Assembly: GCA_036380835.1 (NCBI GenBank)
Contig: DASVDZ010000004.1
Location: forward strand, 7,482-71,481
DNA from: Candidatus Eiseniibacteriota bacterium
Lineage (GTDB): Bacteria > Eisenbacteria > RBG-16-71-46 > SZUA-252
Direction of reading: 5' to 3'
DNA: 64,000 bases
Each line of letters starts with the position of its first letter. Position 1 is the stretch's first letter. A model generated the notes under the pieces. That model had not been told where the DNA came from, made no database searches, and saw only the letters and a list, made by a program, of their open reading frames with translations. Positions 3,676 through 53,514 of this stretch are shown here, piece by piece. The position numbers were made by a program, and so were the translations under genes.

Positions 3676-3749
3676 TGGGGGATCGTCCAGTGGTAGGACA
3701 CGTGGCTCTGGACCACGGTACAGGGGTTCGAATCCTCTTCCCCCAGCCA
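3676..3749 (+). tRNA. tRNA-Gln (anticodon CUG)
   Basis: 74 nt, TGGGGGATCGTCCAGTGGTAGGACACGTGGCTCTGGACCACGGTACAGGGGTTCGAATCCTCTTCCCCCAGCCA. 7-bp acceptor stem with U1:A72 (typical of bacterial tRNA-Gln), GTTCGAATC T-loop, anticodon stem CGTGG/CCACG with loop CUCUGGA (anticodon CUG), discriminator G plus encoded CCA. Confidence 0.9.
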
Positions 3750-3787: not shown

Positions 3788-3862
3788 GGCGCTATCGTCT
3801 AGGGGTTAGGACGGGTGGTTCTCAGCCATCAAACCGGGGTTCGAATCCCCGTAGCGCTACCA
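3788..3862 (+). tRNA. tRNA-Glu (anticodon CUC)
   Basis: 75 nt, GGCGCTATCGTCTAGGGGTTAGGACGGGTGGTTCTCAGCCATCAAACCGGGGTTCGAATCCCCGTAGCGCTACCA. The UCGUCUAG...GGAC D-arm is typical of tRNA-Glu. Anticodon loop UUCUCAG (anticodon CUC), GTTCGAATC T-loop, encoded CCA. Confidence 0.9.
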
Positions 3863-3931: not shown

Positions 3932-6667
3932 CTGGTCGCGGGCCTCCTCGCCGGCTCCGCCCCGTCTTCCTCCGCCCAACCGCGCGAAACCACCCGCGCC
4001 GCCGTCCCCGGCGTGCCCGCCGGCGTCGAGCGACTCGACTCCCTCGCGGGCATCACGCAGTATCGCCTCCGCTCGAACGGAATGACGATCCTCGTCGTCC
4101 CGAACCACGCCGCCCCCGTGATCACGTTCGAGGTGGTCTACCACGTCGGTTCCCGGAACGAGGCCCCGGGAAACACCGGATCGGCGCACCTCCTCGAGCA
4201 CATGCTCTTCAACAAGAGCACGAAGAACTTCGGGAAGGCGAACGGCAAGAAGACGTTCCAGCAGGTGCTCTACGAGGCGGGGGCCGACTTCGCCTCGTCC
4301 AACATGACGACCTGGAACGACCGGATGACCGGCTACTCCACGCTTCCCTCGGACAAGCTCGAGCTGGCGATGAAGATCGAGGCCGACCGCCTCGGGCGCG
4401 CGCTGATCCTCGACTCGGAGCGCCAGCCCGAGATGTCGGTCGTTCGAAACGAGTACGAGATCGGCGAGAACAGCGCGTACAACGCGCTCGACAAGGCGGT
4501 GATCGGCGAGACGATCGTGGCCCACCCCTACCACTGGGACACGATCGGGTACCGCTCCGACATCGAGGGGGTCACGACCGAGAAGCTGCGCGAGCACTAC
4601 GAGGACTTCTTCCATCCCGACAACGCCGAGGCGATCCTGGTCGGCGACTTCGACGTCGCGCGGGCGCTCCGGATCTTCGATCGCGAGTTCGGCGGATTCG
4701 CGAGGGCCGCCAAGCCGATCCCGAAGGTGATCACCGTCGAGCCGCCGCAGGAGGGCGAGCGGCGCGTGATCGTGAGGCGCCCCGGCAAGATCGGCGTCGT
4801 CGAGATCGCCTTCATGCGCCCCGGCGCGCTCGATCCCGACTACGTGCCGCTCGACGTGCTGACGACGATCCTCTCGACCGGCGTGAACTCCCGGCTCCAC
4901 CAGGCCCTGGTCGAGACGGGCCTCGCGTCCGACGTGAGCGCCTGGAACTTCCAGTTCCGCGATCCGTATCCGATCGTGGCGCAGGCCACCGTCGCGCCCG
5001 GCAAGACACACGAACAGGTCGAGTCGGCGATGAAGGCGGCCCTCTACCGGATCGGCCATGACGGCGTTTCGCCCGCCGAGCTGAACCGCGCGAAGAGCCA
5101 GCTCGAGGTTTCCGTGATCCGCGGGCGCGACGGCACCTACCAGCTCGCGTCGGCGCTCGGCGAGGCCGTCGCCTCCGCCGACTGGAAGTGGTTCGTCGGC
5201 TACGTCGACTCCGTCCGCGCGGTCACCGCCGACGACGTGAAGCGCGTGGCGGCCAAGTACCTCGTGCCCGACCACGCGGACGTGGGATGGTTCGAGCCCC
5301 TCTCGAACGAGCCCCCCGCGGCCGCCCGGAAGCCCTCGGCCCCCAAGGCGAAGGCGCACGGCGCCGGCGGCGCCTCGGACGAGGCGGCGCCGTCGGGGTT
5401 CGCGGCGCGCACGCTCCACCGCGTTCTCCCGAACGGACTGACGCTCGACGTGATCGCGAACCACGCCGTGCCGACCGTAGCGATCCAGGGGACGGTGTTC
5501 GCCGGACGGATGTACGGATCGCCGGCCAAGCCGGCGGTGGCGGAGCTGACGGCGGAAATGCTCAACCGCGGCACCACGACGCGCGACAAGCGGGCCATCG
5601 CCGCCGCGCTCGACGGCGTCGGCGCGGAGCTCGGGATCGGCGCCGACCTGAACGACGGCACCGTCACCGGCTCCGGGCTCTCGCGGGACCTGCGGCTCCT
5701 TCTCACCACCCTCGCCGAAGAGGTCGCGCACCCCGCCTTTCCCGACTCCGAGCTGGTGAAGGCGAAGGCCGAGATGAAGGCCAACGTGCTCCGCGGGGCC
5801 GACAACACGCGCCAGCGCGCGTGGGACCGGCTCCTCCGAATGGTCTATCCCGAGGGCCACCCCTTCCGCGCGCCCACGACCGAGGCCCTGCTCGCGAGCA
5901 TCGAACGGACCACGACGTCCGATCTGCGCGCCTTCCATCGCGAACGCTGGGTCGGTTCGAGCATGATCCTCGCGATCGTGGGCGACGTCGATCCGGAGGC
6001 GACCGCCGCCCTGGTCGACTCCCTCTTCGCCTCGATTCCGCGCGGCGAGCGGCCCCGGCCCGACGTGGCCGTCACCGCCCCCGACGCGGCGGAGCGCGTC
6101 GTGGAGACGATGCCCGGCAAGGCCAACGTCGATTTCGTCTACGGCGAGGCGAGCGGGCTCAAGCGGAACGATCCCGACTACGAGGCCGCGCTGGTCGCCA
6201 ACGCCGCCCTCGGACAGAGCGGCATGACCTCGAGGATCGGCGTGCGCGTCCGCGACACCGAGGGCCTCTCGTACAGCCTCTTCTCCCGATTCCTCTGGAG
6301 CGACTTCGTGGACGGGGTCTGGCTCGTCGACGTGGCGGTGGCGCCGCAGAACGTGGCCAAGGCGGTCCGATCGACGAAGGACGAGATCGACCGCTACGTC
6401 CGGGAGGGGATCACCGACGAGGAGGTCTCGGTCCAGAAGGAGTTCTTCGCCGGGAACTACGTCGTCCGCCTCGGCACCAACGCCGGGGTCGCCGCCTCGC
6501 TCACGTACGCCGAGAAGTTCGGCTTCGGCCCTTCGTACCTGGACGACTACCCAGAGCGGATCCGCGCGGTCACGAAGGCTGAGGTGAACGAGGCGATCCG
6601 AAAGCACCTCCGGCCCGCCGCGATGCACCTCGTGATCGCGGGCGACGTCCCCTCGGTCCCGCAGTAG
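3932..6667 (+). CDS. Secreted two-unit M16 (pitrilysin/insulinase-family) zinc peptidase; start codon unresolved
   Basis: HLLEHMLFNKS inverted zinc-binding motif (HxxEH) in the N-terminal unit, with a second inactive-type M16 unit downstream. Signal-peptide-like RVRARLAAASALVAGLLAGSAPSSSAQ. The track ATG at 3815 lies inside tRNA-Glu and is rejected. There is no in-frame ATG/GTG/TTG between the tRNA end (3862) and the signal peptide; the candidates are CTG 3932 or GTG 4013 (which would give no signal peptide). The stop at 6667 is secure. Confidence 0.75.
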   Translation: MVAGLLAGSAPSSSAQPRETTRAAVPGVPAGVERLDSLAGITQYRLRSNGMTILVVPNHAAPVITFEVVYHVGSRNEAPGNTGSAHLLEHMLFNKSTKNFGKANGKKTFQQVLYEAGADFASSNMTTWNDRMTGYSTLPSDKLELAMKIEADRLGRALILDSERQPEMSVVRNEYEIGENSAYNALDKAVIGETIVAHPYHWDTIGYRSDIEGVTTEKLREHYEDFFHPDNAEAILVGDFDVARALRIFDREFGGFARAAKPIPKVITVEPPQEGERRVIVRRPGKIGVVEIAFMRPGALDPDYVPLDVLTTILSTGVNSRLHQALVETGLASDVSAWNFQFRDPYPIVAQATVAPGKTHEQVESAMKAALYRIGHDGVSPAELNRAKSQLEVSVIRGRDGTYQLASALGEAVASADWKWFVGYVDSVRAVTADDVKRVAAKYLVPDHADVGWFEPLSNEPPAAARKPSAPKAKAHGAGGASDEAAPSGFAARTLHRVLPNGLTLDVIANHAVPTVAIQGTVFAGRMYGSPAKPAVAELTAEMLNRGTTTRDKRAIAAALDGVGAELGIGADLNDGTVTGSGLSRDLRLLLTTLAEEVAHPAFPDSELVKAKAEMKANVLRGADNTRQRAWDRLLRMVYPEGHPFRAPTTEALLASIERTTTSDLRAFHRERWVGSSMILAIVGDVDPEATAALVDSLFASIPRGERPRPDVAVTAPDAAERVVETMPGKANVDFVYGEASGLKRNDPDYEAALVANAALGQSGMTSRIGVRVRDTEGLSYSLFSRFLWSDFVDGVWLVDVAVAPQNVAKAVRSTKDEIDRYVREGITDEEVSVQKEFFAGNYVVRLGTNAGVAASLTYAEKFGFGPSYLDDYPERIRAVTKAEVNEAIRKHLRPAAMHLVIAGDVPSVPQ

Positions 6668-45416: not shown

Positions 45417-46847
45417 CTAGCCCTTCACGCAGAGGATCGGCGTGAGCCGGGCCACGACGCGCGCGAGCCCCGCCCGCTCGGCGGCGTCGACCACGGCGGC
45501 CACGTCCTTGTAGGCGCCGGGCGCCTCCTCGGCGACGCCGCGCGGCGAGGGGCTCCGGATCTCGATCCCCCCGAGACGGAGCGACTCCATCACGTCGCGT
45601 CCCCGCCAGCGCTTGAGCGCCGCGGTGCGGCTCATGGCCCGCCCCGCGCCGTGGCAGGCGGACCCGAACGAGCGCGCTTCGCCCTCTCGCGTTCCCGCGA
45701 GGATGTACGAGGCGGTCCCCATCGTCCCGCCGATCAGGACCGGCTGGCCGGTCTCGCGGAGAACGCCCGAGAGCTCGGGGTGACCGGGCCCCCACGCGCG
45801 CGTGGCTCCCTTCCGGTGGACGTAGAGACGCATCGACTCGCCGCCGACCCGGTGCTCCTCCACCTTGCACGTGTTGTGCGATACGTCGTACAGGAGCGAA
45901 AGCGTCGTCCCGGGCAGGACCTCGTCGAACGCCTGGCGCGCCAGATGGGTCACGATTTCCCGGTTCGCGAGGGCGCAGTTGATCCCGGCGCGCATCGCGC
46001 CGAGGTATTCCGCGCCGAGATCCGAGTGGATCGGCGCGCACGCGAGCTCCCGGTCGGGAAGCGTGAGCCCATGGCTCGGGGCGGAGACGACCATTCGCTT
46101 CAGGTAGTCGGTGCCGATCTGGTGTCCGAGCCCGCGCGAGCCGCAGTGGATCGAGACGACCGCGTCGCCGACCCGGAGTCCGAAGGCCGTCGCGATGTCC
46201 GCGGCGCCGATCTCCGACACCTCCTGCACTTCGAGGTAGTGGTTGCCCGATCCCAGGGTGCCCATCTCGTCCTTCTGGCGCTTCTTGGCGTGGTCCGAGA
46301 CGGCCCCCGGAAGCGCGCCGTCCATCACGCCTCCCTCCTCGACGCGCTCGAGATCCTCGGGACGTCCCCATCCCCGTTCCACGGCCCAACGCGCCCCGCC
46401 GAGCAGCATCCGATCGACCTCCTTCGCGTCGAGGTGGATCCGGCCGGTGCTGCCCACGCCCGCGGGCACGGCCCGGTAGAGCGCGTCGGCGACGTCGCCC
46501 CGCCGGGCCCTGATCTCGGCCGCGGTGTGCCCGGTGAAGAGCGTGCGGACGCCGCAGGAAATGTCGAAGCCGACGCCGCCCGCCGAGACCACGCCCCCCT
46601 GGTCCGGATCGAACGCCGCGACGCCGCCGATCGGGAATCCATAGCCCCAATGGGCGTCCGGCATCACGTACGACGCCCGCACGATGCCGGGGAGCGCGGC
46701 GACGTTCACCGCCTGCTCGTAGACCTTGTCGTCCATGTCGCGCAGGAGCGCCTCGGTCGCGTAGAGGATCGCCGGCACCCGCATCGCCCCGTGCGCCGGA
46801 ATCCACCACTCGCACTCGCCGCGGTGCTCGAATCGGGTCAGCTCCAT
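45417..46847 (-). CDS. rtcB: RNA-splicing ligase RtcB (3'-phosphate/5'-hydroxyl RNA ligase)
   Basis: 476 aa. YVMPDAHWGYGFPIGGVAAFD, GGVGFDISCGVR, HCGSRGLGHQIG, HNTCKVEEH, SACHGAGRAMSR. Confidence 0.95.
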   Translation of the reverse strand: MELTRFEHRGECEWWIPAHGAMRVPAILYATEALLRDMDDKVYEQAVNVAALPGIVRASYVMPDAHWGYGFPIGGVAAFDPDQGGVVSAGGVGFDISCGVRTLFTGHTAAEIRARRGDVADALYRAVPAGVGSTGRIHLDAKEVDRMLLGGARWAVERGWGRPEDLERVEEGGVMDGALPGAVSDHAKKRQKDEMGTLGSGNHYLEVQEVSEIGAADIATAFGLRVGDAVVSIHCGSRGLGHQIGTDYLKRMVVSAPSHGLTLPDRELACAPIHSDLGAEYLGAMRAGINCALANREIVTHLARQAFDEVLPGTTLSLLYDVSHNTCKVEEHRVGGESMRLYVHRKGATRAWGPGHPELSGVLRETGQPVLIGGTMGTASYILAGTREGEARSFGSACHGAGRAMSRTAALKRWRGRDVMESLRLGGIEIRSPSPRGVAEEAPGAYKDVAAVVDAAERAGLARVVARLTPILCVKG

Positions 46848-46875
46848 CGCATGGCCTCGCCCCCGCCACCTGACG

Positions 46876-47940
46876 TCACACGTCCACCACGCACTGCGCG
46901 ACCCATGTCCCGTTCGGCTCGCGCGCGACGCGGAGCGAAGTGAAGGTCGCCCCCTTCGGTTCCACGGCCGGTTGGTGCGACCCGACGCGCACGGGCTCTC
47001 CCCAAGCCCGCCCCTCGAGCGCGTGCTCCCCGATCGAGACGGCGTAGCGGCCGAAGACCATGCGCCGCGTCGCCATCTCGTAGATCACGGCGTTCAGCCA
47101 GTCGACGAGCAGCAGCTCCGGGTCCTGCGGCGCCGGCGCGGGAACGCGGATCGATACCGACTCCGCGTCCTGAACCGTCTCCGGTTCGAGCAGCACGGCG
47201 GTCAGGGCAGTCGCCGCCTGCGCGAACGCCTCTTCCATCGTGGCGCCGCGGCCGCGCACGCCGACGTCCGCGCCGTGCTCGAAGTGCTCCCACCGCCCGG
47301 CCCTGGCGGCCGTCTCGAGCAGGCGCACGACCTCGTCGTCGGTCACCTGGTGGAAGTCTTCGAAGAACGCTCCGACCGCGAGGAAGCGCTCGGGCGTCGA
47401 CAGGACGACGACCTCGTCGGCCTCGCGACGGAGCCGGCGGAGGGTCTCCGGCGGGGCGACCGCGGCGGCCGCGACGAGGCGCGCGGGCTTCCGCGCTCGA
47501 ATCAGGCGGAGCGCGGCCGCGAGCGTCGCGCCCGTCGCGACGCCGTCGTCGACGACGATCACCGTCCGCCCCGCGGGGTCGGCGGGCGCGCGCGCCGGCG
47601 TATAGCGGGCGCGGCGCTCGAGGAGGAGCCGCCACTGACGCTGGCGCTCCTCCTCGAGATAGCGCTCCGGGAGCCCCAGCTCCCCGGCGTTCCCGTGGAG
47701 CGTCACCGCTCCCGTCTCGTCCACCGCGCCGACGGCGAGCTCGGCCTGGCGCGGCGCGCCCAGCTTGTGGACCAACACGACGTCGAGGTCGCCCTCGAGC
47801 TCTCTCGCGATGATCGCGGCCATCGGCATCGCGCCCCGCGGGACGCCGAGCACGAGGGGGCGGCTCCCGCGGTAGCGCGAGAGTCGGCGCGCGAGACGGC
47901 GCGCGGCGTCCTCCCGATCCCGGAATGTCTCCGCGTTCAC
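46876..47940 (-). CDS. Type-I phosphoribosyltransferase domain fused to archease (RtcB activator)
   Basis: 354 aa. The N-terminal ~210 aa contain the PRTase fold with PRPP-binding loop VIVVDDGVATGATL. The C-terminal ~140 aa are archease (HFEHGADVGVRGRGATMEEAFAQAA ... EGRAWGEP ... KGATFTSLRV). Lies 28 nt upstream of rtcB on the same strand. Confidence 0.8.
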   Translation of the reverse strand: MNAETFRDREDAARRLARRLSRYRGSRPLVLGVPRGAMPMAAIIARELEGDLDVVLVHKLGAPRQAELAVGAVDETGAVTLHGNAGELGLPERYLEEERQRQWRLLLERRARYTPARAPADPAGRTVIVVDDGVATGATLAAALRLIRARKPARLVAAAAVAPPETLRRLRREADEVVVLSTPERFLAVGAFFEDFHQVTDDEVVRLLETAARAGRWEHFEHGADVGVRGRGATMEEAFAQAATALTAVLLEPETVQDAESVSIRVPAPAPQDPELLLVDWLNAVIYEMATRRMVFGRYAVSIGEHALEGRAWGEPVRVGSHQPAVEPKGATFTSLRVAREPNGTWVAQCVVDV

Positions 47941-47950
47941 GGCCCGCCTC

Positions 47951-48874
47951 TCATCGGACGGCCCCCGGCGCGAGGCCGAGTCCCGCGGCGACGCCGACGG
48001 CGTACAGCGTGAACGAAAGAAGCGCCCAGGCCTGGGCCGGCACGATCCGCGCCGTAACCTCGGGGTCCCGGGCGAGCCGGCGAGCGGCCACGACGGCGTG
48101 CGGGAGCCCGGCGAGCCCCAGGAGGACGAGGGGCGGGCCCGTCGTGGCGGCGATCGCGACGAGCCCCGCGAACGCGACCGCGATCAGCGCCGCGAACGCG
48201 CGGCTCGCCGCCCGGCGCCCCAGCCGGACGACGAGCGTCCGCTTCCCCGCCGCGAGATCGGAGCGGTAGTCGGGGAATTCGTTGATCCAGAGGAAGGCCG
48301 CGACGAGGATTCCGAGCGGGATCGAGAGAAGGAGGGCGTCCCGGCCGATGGCTCCCCGCTGGACCAGATCGACGCCGCAGGCGATCAGCGGGCCGTAGGT
48401 CAGAGCGACCGCCGCCTCTCCGAGGCCGCGATACGAGAGCCGGAGCGGGGCCGCGTGGTAGAACCAGGCGAGGAGGACGCCGGCGAGCCCGAGCCAGAGG
48501 ACGCGCGGCTCGCGCGCGACGGTGATCCAGAGGCCGATGGCGATCACGGCGCCGTACCCGACCGCCGCGACCGCCGCCGTTTCGCGGCGGCTCAGGAGCC
48601 CGTCCACCAGGACGCGCTTCCCCCCGGAGAAGGGGCTCCGGTCCTCCGGCGCGACTCCCCCGTCGGCGCCCGAGTCGAAGTCGACCAGCTCGCCCGAGGC
48701 GTTCTTCGCCGTTTCGACGCAGAAGATCCCCGCGATCGTCACGACGAGCCATCCCCATTCCACCGGACCCGCGCGCGCGGCGGCCGCGGCGCCCACGAGG
48801 AGCGAGGCCGCCGACGCGAGCGTGATCTTCGGATCGGCCAGGCGGTGGACGCCCTGGCCCCAGCTGGCCCTCAT
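47951..48874 (-). CDS. UbiA-family aromatic prenyltransferase (MenA-like)
   Basis: Multi-TM. Asp-rich motif region (ETAKNASGELVDFDSGADGG) and a second motif (YRSDLAAGKRTLVVRLG), as in UbiA/MenA enzymes. Start taken at MRASWGQG; the upstream Met at 48919 is possible. Confidence 0.7.
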   Translation of the reverse strand: MRASWGQGVHRLADPKITLASAASLLVGAAAAARAGPVEWGWLVVTIAGIFCVETAKNASGELVDFDSGADGGVAPEDRSPFSGGKRVLVDGLLSRRETAAVAAVGYGAVIAIGLWITVAREPRVLWLGLAGVLLAWFYHAAPLRLSYRGLGEAAVALTYGPLIACGVDLVQRGAIGRDALLLSIPLGILVAAFLWINEFPDYRSDLAAGKRTLVVRLGRRAASRAFAALIAVAFAGLVAIAATTGPPLVLLGLAGLPHAVVAARRLARDPEVTARIVPAQAWALLSFTLYAVGVAAGLGLAPGAVR

Positions 48875-49124
48875 GCGCCCCCCTCGGTCCGCACGGCGCG
48901 CGCCACGCTCAGCGAACACCCGGCGCGATACCGGGTCAAGAGGTTCCGGCCCGCCGGGGCCATGTCATCCCTTGGTAGCGTTCCCAGTCGCCCCGCCCGG
49001 GTCTATCGTTGTATGTAGAGGGGGTTTCGGTAGGGTTTTCAAATCGACCTGTTCCGTCGGCGCCAAGGGTGTCAACCTACGCGATGGGCAGTCCGCGGAG
49101 CCGGCCCGTCAAAGGAGGGAGTCG

Positions 49125-50787: not shown

Positions 50788-51807
50788 TCAGCGGCCGAGC
50801 GAGGAGGTCGCCAGGTAGGTGACCGCCGCGACGGCCGCCGCCGCCGGGATGGTGAGCACCCAAGCCCAGACGATGCGCCCGGCCACGCCCCATCGCACCG
50901 CCGAGAGCCGCCGCGTCGAGCCGACGCCCACGATCGCGCCGGTGATCGTATGCGTCGTCGAGACCGGAACGCCGAGGTGGGTCGCCGCGAAGAGGCTGAC
51001 GGCGCCGGCCGTCTCCGCGCAGAAGCCTCCGAACGGGCGGAGCTTCGTGACGCGCGAGCCGAGCGTGTGGACGATCCGCCATCCCCCGGACAGCGTCCCG
51101 AACGCGATCGCCGCGCCGCAGGAGATGACGACCCACGTCGGAATGTAGAAGTGGTCGATCCGCCCCGTCGTCACGAGGAGGAGCGCGATGATGCCCATCG
51201 TCTTCTGGGCGTCGTTCGCGCCATGGCCCAGCGAGTAGAGCGCCGCGGAGAGGAGCTGGAGCCGCCGGAAGAGCTGGTCCACCTTGCCCGGCAGGGCGCG
51301 GCGGAAGATCCACGACGTGACGATCATGTTCCCCCATCCGAGGATGAGCCCCACGAGCGGCGCGACGACGATGAAGACGGCGATCTTCGTCAGCCCCGGC
51401 AGGATCACGGCGGCGATCCCTCCGTAGCACATGGCGGCGCCCACCAGTCCCCCGATCAGGGCGTGGGACGACGACGTGGGGAGTCCGAGCCACCAGGTGA
51501 GCAGATTCCACACGATCGCTCCCACGAGGGCCGAGAGGAGCACGTGGTTGTTGACCGCCTCGGTGATCACGATCCCCTTCCCCACCGTCTTCGCCACGGC
51601 CTCGCCCAGCACGAACACGGCGATGAAGTTGAAGAAGGCAGCCCAGACGACCGCGAATCCCGGCGTCAGGACCCGCGTCGAGACGACCGTCGCGATCGAG
51701 TTGGCGGCGTCGTGGAATCCGTTCAGGTAGTCGAAGAAGAGGGCGAGGACGATGATGAAGAGGACGAGGGGCGAGAACGCGTCGCCGGCGCCGAGGGGGA
51801 CGCTCAC
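50788..51807 (-). CDS. Inorganic phosphate transporter, PiT family
   Basis: 339 aa. PiT signature at both repeats (FFDYLNGFHDAANSIATVVSTR and LGHGANDAQKTMGII). Confidence 0.9.
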   Translation of the reverse strand: MSVPLGAGDAFSPLVLFIIVLALFFDYLNGFHDAANSIATVVSTRVLTPGFAVVWAAFFNFIAVFVLGEAVAKTVGKGIVITEAVNNHVLLSALVGAIVWNLLTWWLGLPTSSSHALIGGLVGAAMCYGGIAAVILPGLTKIAVFIVVAPLVGLILGWGNMIVTSWIFRRALPGKVDQLFRRLQLLSAALYSLGHGANDAQKTMGIIALLLVTTGRIDHFYIPTWVVISCGAAIAFGTLSGGWRIVHTLGSRVTKLRPFGGFCAETAGAVSLFAATHLGVPVSTTHTITGAIVGVGSTRRLSAVRWGVAGRIVWAWVLTIPAAAAVAAVTYLATSSLGR

Positions 51808-51820
51808 CGATCGGCGCCCG

Positions 51821-52435
51821 TCAGTTGTTCTTCACGACGATGCCCTCGAGGATGTTCGCGACGTCCTCGCAGTCGTCCGTCGTGGCCTCGAGGCGCCCGT
51901 ACAGCTCCTTCCACTTGATCAACTCCCGGAAATCGGCCGCGTCCTCGAACAGTTTCGCCGTCATGTTCCGCGAGATGGTATCGGCGTCGTTCTCGAGGGT
52001 ATGGATCTCGACGCAGTAGGCCTGGATCCGCTTCGGGTCCCGGAGGTGCTTCACGGCCTCGCAGATGGCGACGCAGGCGCGCTCGATGATGTCGATCAGC
52101 TCGATCGTCTCGGGCGTGACGCTCTGGACCTTGAAGAGAGCGAACCGGCTCGAGACGCCTTCGATGTTGTCGAGCACGTCGTCGAGGGCGCTGGCGAGCG
52201 CGTGGATGTCCTCGCGATCGAACGGGGTGATGAACGTGCGGTTGAGCGTGCTGATCAGATCGTGCGTGAGCTGATCGCCCCGGCTCTCGAGCTCCTTGAT
52301 GTGTTGCGCCTTCTCCCCGACGTGGTCGAACTGGCGCGCCAACCCCTGGAGCGCCCGCGCGGCCTCGAGGACGGTCTCGGCCTGGGATCCGAAGAGCTCG
52401 AAGAACCGGTGCTCGGTCGGAAGGAATCGCAACAT
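51821..52435 (-). CDS. DUF47 (PhoU-like) protein paired with PiT
   Basis: 204 aa. Start MLRFLPTEHRFFELF, typical of DUF47; the ORF-track Met at 52537 is rejected as an extension. Lies 13 nt upstream of the PiT gene. Confidence 0.8.
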   Translation of the reverse strand: MLRFLPTEHRFFELFGSQAETVLEAARALQGLARQFDHVGEKAQHIKELESRGDQLTHDLISTLNRTFITPFDREDIHALASALDDVLDNIEGVSSRFALFKVQSVTPETIELIDIIERACVAICEAVKHLRDPKRIQAYCVEIHTLENDADTISRNMTAKLFEDAADFRELIKWKELYGRLEATTDDCEDVANILEGIVVKNN

Positions 52436-52521
52436 GGTCGCGCCGTGTATACACCACGGGGGCGCTCCCTGTCCATGTCGCTCTCGCGCGATCGCCCCCG
52501 AGTGCGGTAGGATGCCGCGCC

Positions 52522-53514
52522 ATGGCGGGTCTTCCACGATCCTCGGTCGGCCGATGGCTGCCGGGCACGCTGATCCTGGTCGCGCTGCTCGTCTTCGGGT
52601 TGCGAAACGTCGCGTGGCGCCACTTCTCGGAGATCCTGCAGCGGGCCGAGCCGTCGTGGATCCTGGCGGCCGTCGTGCTGCAGCTCGGCACGTATCTCTG
52701 CGCGGCGGGCGTCCTCCATCGCGGGATCGCCGCCTCCGGCGTGCGGCGCTCGCTCCTCTCGCTCGTCCCCCTCGGCCTCGCCAAGCTCTTCATCGACCAG
52801 GTCGTTCCGACCGGGGGCCTCGGCGGGACCCTCCTGGTGGTGCGAGCGCTCGAGCGGCGCACCGTCCCGCGCGGCGTCGCGACCGCGGCGGTCGTCGTGA
52901 ACATGCTCTCGTTCTACGCGGCCTACGCGATCGCGGTGGCGGCCACGCTGGGAGTGCTCTGGCTCGGCCACAAGTTCCACCCCGCGATCCTCGTCCTCCT
53001 GACCCTGTTCGCGTTCTACGCGACGGCGATGCCGGTGCTGATCCTCTGGATCGTCTACGGCGGCCCCCGGTCCCGCCCGGCGTGGCTCCACCGGGTGCCG
53101 GGCTTCGACGCGGCGCTCCGGGCGATCGAGGAGGCGCCCGCGTCCACGCTCCGTCACCCGCTCCTCTTCCTCGAGTCGATCCTGCTCCAGCTCGCGATCG
53201 TCGTCCTCGACGCGCTGACGCTCGACGTGCTCCTTCGCGCGACCGGACACGTGGCACCCTTCCCGATCGTCTTCACGAGCTTCGTGCTCGCGTCGATCGC
53301 CGCCACGCTGAGCCTTCTTCCGGGCGGCGTCGGGACGTTCGAGGCGGGCTCCGTCGCCTCGCTCCACTACTTCGGCGTGCCGCTCGAGGTCTCCTTGACC
53401 GCGACGCTCCTCGTGCGCGGCTTCACGCTCTGGCTCCCGCTCGTACCCGGCGTCTGGTTCGCGCGCCACGAGATGATGGGGTCGGCGCCGCCCGGCGACG
53501 CGCCCCCGCCCTAG
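52522..53514 (+). CDS. UPF0104 / lysylphosphatidylglycerol-synthase-TM-region-like flippase-type membrane protein
   Basis: 330 aa, about 8 TM helices. The pattern resembles the TIGR00374 family (SILLQLAIVVLDALTLDVLLRATG...SLLPGGVGTFEAGSVASL). Confidence 0.6.
   Translation: MAGLPRSSVGRWLPGTLILVALLVFGLRNVAWRHFSEILQRAEPSWILAAVVLQLGTYLCAAGVLHRGIAASGVRRSLLSLVPLGLAKLFIDQVVPTGGLGGTLLVVRALERRTVPRGVATAAVVVNMLSFYAAYAIAVAATLGVLWLGHKFHPAILVLLTLFAFYATAMPVLILWIVYGGPRSRPAWLHRVPGFDAALRAIEEAPASTLRHPLLFLESILLQLAIVVLDALTLDVLLRATGHVAPFPIVFTSFVLASIAATLSLLPGGVGTFEAGSVASLHYFGVPLEVSLTATLLVRGFTLWLPLVPGVWFARHEMMGSAPPGDAPPP

Follow-up and report, generated by a model that had tools for sequence, protein, structure and literature searches.

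A TT1426-type phosphoribosyltransferase fused to archease: a rare but recurrent variant of the archease-RtcB system

A stretch of 64,000 nucleotides from Candidatus Eiseniibacteriota bacterium (assembly GCA_036380835.1, contig DASVDZ010000004.1, positions 7,482 to 71,481; this whole stretch is called the window here) contains, directly upstream of the RNA ligase gene rtcB, a gene for a protein in which the RtcB activator archease is joined to a phosphoribosyltransferase (PRTase) of the TT1426 family. The fusion, a variant of the archease-RtcB system, is genuine and recurs, although it is rare, and it is without description in the literature that was searched. No paper combining archease with a PRTase was found there, nothing was found on COG1926 or on Rv2630 together with archease, TT1426 is mentioned solely in method papers, and a TT1426-type PRTase is not in the lists given by the papers on B. 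cenocepacia's lxa locus. Automated annotation already picks up the fusion protein as "archease".

The fusion protein, its archease domain and RtcB

The fusion gene is an unbroken open reading frame (ORF) on the minus strand, reaching from a GTG start codon at 47940 to a TGA stop codon at 46878-46876. Pfam assigns amino acids (aa) 9-177 of the product to PF00156 (Pribosyltran, E=6.6e-21) and aa 217-354 to a complete PF01951 domain (Archease, E=1.2e-33), and the AlphaFold2 model, with a mean predicted local distance difference test score (pLDDT) of 87.8, shows two folded domains and is confident through the junction. An earlier note on this DNA, made from the sequence alone, had already named both domains and the boundary between them, which Pfam, the alignments and AlphaFold2 now bear out, and its reservation that the PRTase-like region might lack the fold is dispelled by the structure prediction. 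It had also considered that a frameshift might have created the fusion artificially. In a metagenome-assembled genome (MAG) of such high GC content (~0.72 in the window), two genes merged by a frameshift, a sequencing error or a mis-assembly are a possibility a priori, which is all that speaks for them. An identical protein has been deposited from a Candidatus Eisenbacteria MAG, and the architecture recurs in ~27 further clusters at 90% identity from NCBI, JGI, ENA and Logan assemblies, which align over 99% of the length and are 44-73% identical. These clusters are independent of each other and keep the two domains in frame across linkers of differing length, and the AlphaFold2 model passes the junction with confidence; an artefact, to which we give practically no weight, is ruled out by the independent homologs. 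Both domains are conserved across the 19 fusions that were aligned, in which the linker grows from three residues in the window to up to ~45 low-complexity residues in the homologs, a variation that fits a true two-domain protein. The fusion is confirmed as such a protein.

The C-terminal domain belongs to the archease family, as it scores 116.8 bits with PF01951 (cut-off 25) over profile positions 1-136 of 136, and it has the archease (SHS2-type) fold; the NCBIfam model PRK00407 gives a score of 96, which lies below its own cut-off of 126. In human Archease, a third Mn2+ ion is coordinated by D51, D178 and the I179 carboxylate at the C-terminus and phosphate is bound by K156; two of these residues, D51 and K156, were selected for mutagenesis in order to confirm that they are important (PMC10944509). 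Human D51, K156, D178 and the I179 carboxylate, which RTCB guanylylation requires, align with D225, K329, D353 and V354, respectively, of the window protein. All four are invariant in the 19 fusions, and the metal- and phosphate-binding tip with its two aspartates, one lysine and free C-terminal carboxylate is therefore complete. Since the free C-terminus is a metal ligand, a fusion partner must be N-terminal, and the PRTase is located N-terminal to archease in every fusion homolog. By homology with the human proteins it is well supported that the archease domain would act through the third metal, the mechanism already known, to activate the RtcB encoded downstream. Following the homology with the human RTCB-Archease complex, the tip would insert into RtcB's active site, where D225, D353 and the V354 carboxylate would hold the third Mn2+ and K329 would contact the gamma-phosphate/pyrophosphate (PPi) moiety of guanosine triphosphate (GTP). 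The domain would promote the RtcB-histidine-guanosine monophosphate (RtcB-His-GMP) intermediate, the formation of which would allow multiple-turnover sealing of 3'-phosphate or 2',3'-cyclic phosphate ends to 5'-OH RNA ends. As a side observation, many stand-alone archeases in JGI metagenomes (e.g., P0271, P0273, P0280) are labelled "tRNA nucleotidyltransferase (CCA-adding enzyme)", which on proteins of 140 aa looks like a systematic mis-annotation.

The RtcB encoded downstream is of the archease-dependent type. It matches PH1602 of P. horikoshii (1UC2) with E=3.7e-148, TTHA1785 of T. thermophilus with E=4e-143 and human RTCB with E=5.5e-115, and in the alignment the motifs D-x-x-C, GSGNH, H-x-GSRG, H-N and C-H-G-A-G-R are conserved, with the metal-binding and guanylylated-histidine motifs intact. 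The T. thermophilus RtcB, which is of the same type, depends on archease for multiple turnover (PMC4604427). At each of the six homologous loci for which downstream DNA is available (L001, L002, L003, L005, L006 and L087) rtcB lies directly 3' of the fusion gene, and these six loci span at least four unrelated neighbourhoods. Together with the short gap between the two genes in the window and the lack of a terminator in it, this agrees with the operon of fusion gene and rtcB that had been proposed in the earlier note. The features of the locus are listed in Table 1.

Table 1. Coordinates of the fusion gene, its parts and the adjoining genes in the window.
Feature	Position	Strand	Description
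RtcB RNA ligase	45417..46847	-	476 aa; archaeal/eukaryal, archease-dependent type; PF01139, E=1e-161
Spacer between fusion gene and rtcB	46848..46875	-	28 nt; purine-rich, resembling a ribosome-binding site, GGGGGCGAGG; no terminator
PRTase-archease fusion gene	46876..47940	-	354 aa and stop codon
C-terminal archease domain	46879..47295	-	aa 216-354; tip D225, K329, D353 and free C-terminal V354
Three-residue linker	47296..47304	-	aa 213-215; shortest in the family according to the alignments
N-terminal type I PRTase domain, TT1426 family	47305..47940	-	aa 1-212
Phosphoribosyl pyrophosphate-binding loop	47521..47562	-	VIVVDDGVATGATL; aa 127-140; read from the sequence
UbiA-family (MenA-like) prenyltransferase	47951..48919	-	PF01040, E=2.1e-28; first gene of the likely operon

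The PRTase domain and the neighbourhoods of its family

The N-terminal domain scores 74.7 bits with PF00156 (cut-off 26.3), has the type I PRTase core fold and contains the loop that binds phosphoribosyl pyrophosphate (PRPP), consisting of a hydrophobic run, an acidic pair and G-x-x-T-G-x-T. This loop, VIVVDDGVATGATL, is intact, as had been stated before, and its residues D131, G133, A135, T136, G137 and T139 do not vary among the fusions, while their conservation among 302 stand-alone homologs is 85-100%. The domain can be placed in the TT1426 subfamily, as the similarity extends over the full length including the C-terminal hood and the family-specific conserved positions are kept. No position with a conservation of 85% or more among the 302 stand-alone PRTases has been lost in 29 fused domains; those retained include the PRG loop, the residues K59/P63/E67/G71 in the flexible loop, the DDGxATGxT loop and, in the hood, F186/F196/D201. 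The PRTase domain has thus not decayed to a pseudo-enzyme. Because of this full conservation and of the PRPP synthetase genes that neighbour the family (see below), it is most likely that the domain is an active enzyme that still uses PRPP. No substrate is known for the TT1426 family, for which a crystal structure has been available since 2004. For the PRTase domain of the window all NCBIfam equivalog models stay far below their cut-offs, and no characterised member is close enough to point to an acceptor.

TT1426-type PRTases are widespread, forming >1,500 clusters at 50% identity. The ORFs around 65 stand-alone PRTase loci of reference genomes were clustered and the cluster families confirmed with Pfam. 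The recurrent neighbours are DLH-like alpha/beta hydrolases (18 loci, usually adjacent and in Streptomyces fused), PRPP synthetase (11), APH+AAA_33 proteins (11), NAPRTase (8), PncA-like isochorismatase (7), HPF+CSD (7), CapA/PGA_cap (6), CBS (6), Hsp20 (5) and RtcB (5). Usp too belongs to these clusters, which are of a stress type and in which PncA and NAPRTase represent the salvage of nicotinamide adenine dinucleotide (NAD). At five of the 65 loci rtcB or archease is located at most 8 kb from the PRTase gene, as against an expectation of no more than ~0.5 for a gene in roughly one copy, a 16-kb span and 65 loci. Three of these five belong to Alphaproteobacteria, one to Ca. Lustribacter and one to Omnitrophica, the last of which has, on one strand, an operon of the genes for PRTase, RtcB and archease in this order and, after it, those for PncA and NAPRTase. 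Stand-alone PRTases are thus truly, if modestly, enriched in rtcB nearby, though common descent may link the three loci from Alphaproteobacteria. In the opposite direction, 15 stand-alone archease loci were without any PRTase in their vicinity. Among the fusions, the one designated G3 (P0025) adjoins genes for a PRPP-synthetase-like protein, AAA_33, Usp, DLH and a class II ribonucleotide reductase, and in the window Usp, CBS and MsrB genes flank the operon. Judged by gene composition and literature listing, the set of PRTase neighbours resembles the mycobacterial DosR regulon, for which a review lists in M. tuberculosis Rv0571c (a putative PRTase), Rv0573c, Rv0574c, Rv0570 and Rv2630/Rv2631 (RtcB) (PMC5309233).

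Two further observations on these neighbourhoods were made. A cluster comprising PRPP synthetase, DLH-like hydrolase, a ~510-aa APH+AAA_33 protein, PncA-like isochorismatase, NAPRTase, CapA/PGA_cap, HPF+CSD and DUF2267 recurs around the PRTase in several phyla (L007-L086; e.g., L025 3-15295, L032 1-7287, L041 3-11737, L009, L030, L045). Moreover, L003 encodes at 4307-5953, divergent from the G3 fusion, a PRPP-synthetase-like protein of 548 aa, ~230 residues over the usual length, beside a gene for a 531-aa AAA_33/KTI12-like protein.

From its other fusions the TT1426 PRTase appears as a promiscuous fusion module: the same domain is joined elsewhere to an N-terminal CBS+DUF2267 part, to a C-terminal HAD hydrolase or to a C-terminal DLH/alpha-beta hydrolase (P0135, P0137, P0153, P0158, P0138, P0132). 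We know of no function for any of these three kinds of fusion. Some PRTases carry C-terminal extensions of ~150 aa without a Pfam match, which were considered as divergent archeases; this was ruled out, since they are truncated DLH domains.

Two other roles have to be weighed against that of a PRPP-using enzyme. On the one hand, the domain could be a regulatory sensor, that is, mainly a module binding PRPP, GMP or GTP, PPi or (p)ppGpp, the occupancy of which gates the docking of archease on RtcB, so that nucleotide or stringent-response status would switch RNA repair. The catalytic-type positions are, however, conserved exactly as in the stand-alone enzymes, the location of TT1426 family genes beside those of PRPP synthetase fits catalysis better than pure sensing, and the long and variable linkers of most homologs fit poorly with steric gating. 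We regard a sensor as unlikely. On the other hand, the earlier note had thought of a toxin-antitoxin-like module, and a PRTase does act as effector in the anti-phage defence system Shosta. A weak PADLOC match to ShosT (E=5e-5) points in this direction, but it covers just 43 residues of the generic PRPP loop. Neither a full-length ShosT nor an adjacent ShosA was found at the locus, there is no ShosA/DprA-like partner, RtcB and UbiA are without PADLOC matches, and the surrounding genes, whose synteny is conserved, have stress and housekeeping functions. A toxin-antitoxin or defence function is therefore highly improbable and that earlier suggestion finds no support.

Recurrence and origin of the fusion

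The fusion is rare. Among 1.84 billion representatives at 50% identity, ~3 clusters have both domains, compared with ~1,500 TT1426-like clusters (E <1e-30), and no full-length fusion occurs among the best 80 loci of a scan of reference genomes (GTDB representative genomes). It is polyphyletic and arose independently at least twice, probably three to five times. This is because the PRTase of G3 is 68% identical to a stand-alone protein of a Planctomycete and 45% identical to the window type, because P0179, with 38% identity overall and a classical EHTAD/KAVTRH archease, is an outlier in both domains, and because the window archease is no closer to the other fused archeases (57-63% identity) than to stand-alone ones; its 120 closest relatives are all stand-alone, with 60-69% identity. 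As the internal branches of the neighbour-joining trees are short and carry no support values, the exact number of fusion events is uncertain.

How the window copy may have arisen can be read from the locus L090, which encodes the closest stand-alone PRTase (P0028, 219 aa, 73% identical). L090 is syntenic with the window over the genes for MFS, Usp, UbiA, PRTase, MsrB, CBS, CarA and CarB, the flanking proteins being 67-81% identical, and it has neither the archease domain nor rtcB. Stand-alone PRTases end 5-10 residues past the last PRTase helix, exactly where the archease of the window begins. The synteny and the matching junction indicate that a ~1.9-kb archease-rtcB segment is an insertion or a deletion 3' of an older UbiA-PRTase pair, and since L090 has the pair without archease-rtcB, the pair predates the fusion. 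Regarding the taxonomic origin, the contig of L001 (GCA_050257555.1, JBLMXB010000028.1), whose protein P0002 is labelled "Hyphomicrobiales bacterium" by NCBI, is syntenic with the Eisenbacteria-labelled window over >11 kb at 68-88% protein identity, and the label or the binning of one of the two MAGs is probably wrong.

Such an origin is compatible with a merely opportunistic fusion, in which a PRTase gene lost its stop codon after a cassette of archease and rtcB had come to lie, or had been kept, immediately 3' of it. The domains would then be independent, and the fusion would be neutral or merely equalise their expression. The UbiA-PRTase-MsrB arrangement of L090 without archease-rtcB, the join exactly at the natural C-terminal tail of the PRTase, the rarity of the fusion, the promiscuity of the PRTase family towards DLH, HAD and CBS-DUF2267 partners and the lack of a PRTase at any of the 15 stand-alone archease loci are in line with this. 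However, the same two domains were fused in several lineages, with rtcB following downstream in every case, the unfused genes for PRTase, RtcB and archease co-localise in several phyla above chance, and full purifying constraint acts on both domains even where identity falls to 38%. That the fusion recurred and that the genes co-localise at operon level argues against a pure accident, and we consider an opportunistic fusion rather unlikely.

The UbiA-family gene, which the earlier note had correctly seen upstream on the same strand, is very probably co-transcribed with the fusion gene in the window, since it ends 10 nt before the fusion start codon, the corresponding genes overlap by 4 nt in L001 and L090, and no terminator-like site is present between the UbiA, fusion and rtcB genes. 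No sigma-70-like promoter was found at the locus, and no convincing conserved palindrome or operator in the divergent region between UbiA and Usp. UbiA is a lineage-specific partner of the PRTase and not part of the RtcB system: it is absent from the fusion loci L002, L003, L005 and L006, and at L087 a UbiA gene is located nearby. The protein scores below the cut-offs of the NCBIfam MenA models. We also observed that the UbiA gene and the gene for the TT1426-type PRTase stay closely linked with or without archease-rtcB (window 47937-48919; L001 3629-4567; L090 6004-6915), and that L087, a distant fusion locus, has genes for an ECH (MenB-like) protein and a UbiE-type methyltransferase in addition to the close UbiA gene. 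The TT1426-type PRTase may thus have a link to quinone or prenyl metabolism. One UbiA-family enzyme, the mycobacterial DPPR synthase, itself uses PRPP.

Elsewhere in the window, a gene for a PHO4-family phosphate transporter adjoins a PhoU_div/DUF47 gene (50788-52537, minus strand) upstream of the MFS-Usp-UbiA block, an arrangement that is conserved in L001. The only RNA genes that Rfam and ARAGORN detect in the window are those for tRNA-Gln(CTG) (3676-3749) and tRNA-Glu(CTC) (3788-3862), which are arranged in tandem.

Possible coupling of RNA repair and salvage, and comparison with known systems

The repeated evolution of the same join suggests, short of proof, a tie between RNA repair and nucleotide salvage. 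The reading to which we incline, with somewhat more confidence than doubt, is that of a bifunctional protein that acts together with the RtcB encoded downstream and couples a PRPP-dependent salvage enzyme to the RtcB activator. The fusion would place RNA repair and the salvage of nucleotides, or of a compound of the NAD type, together at the same time and place in stress or recovery. The sequences and loci show the identities of the domains, their intact functional residues, the conserved link of the fusion gene to rtcB, the recurrence of the fusion and the association of neighbourhoods, whereas catalysis by either domain, the substrate of the PRTase and a direct mechanistic coupling are inferred. 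The coupling could be catalytic, regulatory or a matter of co-expression alone. The idea of the earlier note that the PRTase domain supplies or senses GTP or PRPP is plausible in view of the recurrence of the fusion and of the stand-alone PRTases located near rtcB. More specifically, the PRTase could take a direct part in the nucleotide cycle of RtcB, either by sensing PRPP, GMP, PPi or (p)ppGpp and gating the docking of archease, or by handling released GMP and PPi. These two by-products of RtcB are the products, or the reverse substrates, of a guanine PRTase. We hold such a direct part to be doubtful. A PRTase makes a nucleoside monophosphate and not GTP, RtcB and archease clearly work without a PRTase, and the linker varies in length, all of which counts against an obligatory direct mechanism.

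If a direct role of the PRTase were true, it would constitute an RNA-repair switch controlled by nucleotide status at the entry into or exit from dormancy, and the TT1426 PRTases, widespread as they are, would have a function assigned to them for the first time. Already the recurrent "Rosetta-stone" fusion and the co-localisation lead to the testable hypothesis that TT1426 PRTases act beside RtcB RNA repair in a stress programme of PRPP/NAD salvage, and the fusion is a natural single-polypeptide reagent for testing a link between PRTase and RtcB. It is of value mainly as a lead to what TT1426 PRTases do and to the physiological context in which bacterial RtcB works.

Archease is known as a stand-alone protein of ~140-180 aa (PF01951; P. 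horikoshii 4N2P; human ARCH, in complex with RTCB 8ODO/8ODP), encoded together with rtcB in the archease-rtcB "tRNA splicing operon". The archease of the window is unlike the described ones in having an extra N-terminal PRTase domain of 212 aa. TT1426 of Thermus thermophilus (PDB 1WD5), a "predicted phosphoribosyltransferase" from structural genomics, is likewise stand-alone and functionally uncharacterised, whereas the version in the window is covalently joined to archease. PyrR, PurR and the ppGpp- or GTP-binding PRTases superpose on the core only, and in contrast to these proteins neither an RNA- or DNA-binding feature nor evidence for a regulatory ligand was found for the PRTase domain of the window. 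The DosR-regulon member Rv0571c of M. tuberculosis is presumably a PRTase-DLH two-domain protein and a relative of the TT1426 family. PRTase-DLH proteins (P0132; L069 of Streptomyces) are similar to the fusion described here in that they have the same PRTase family at the N-terminus and a stress or dormancy gene context, but their C-terminal partner is an alpha/beta hydrolase instead of archease.
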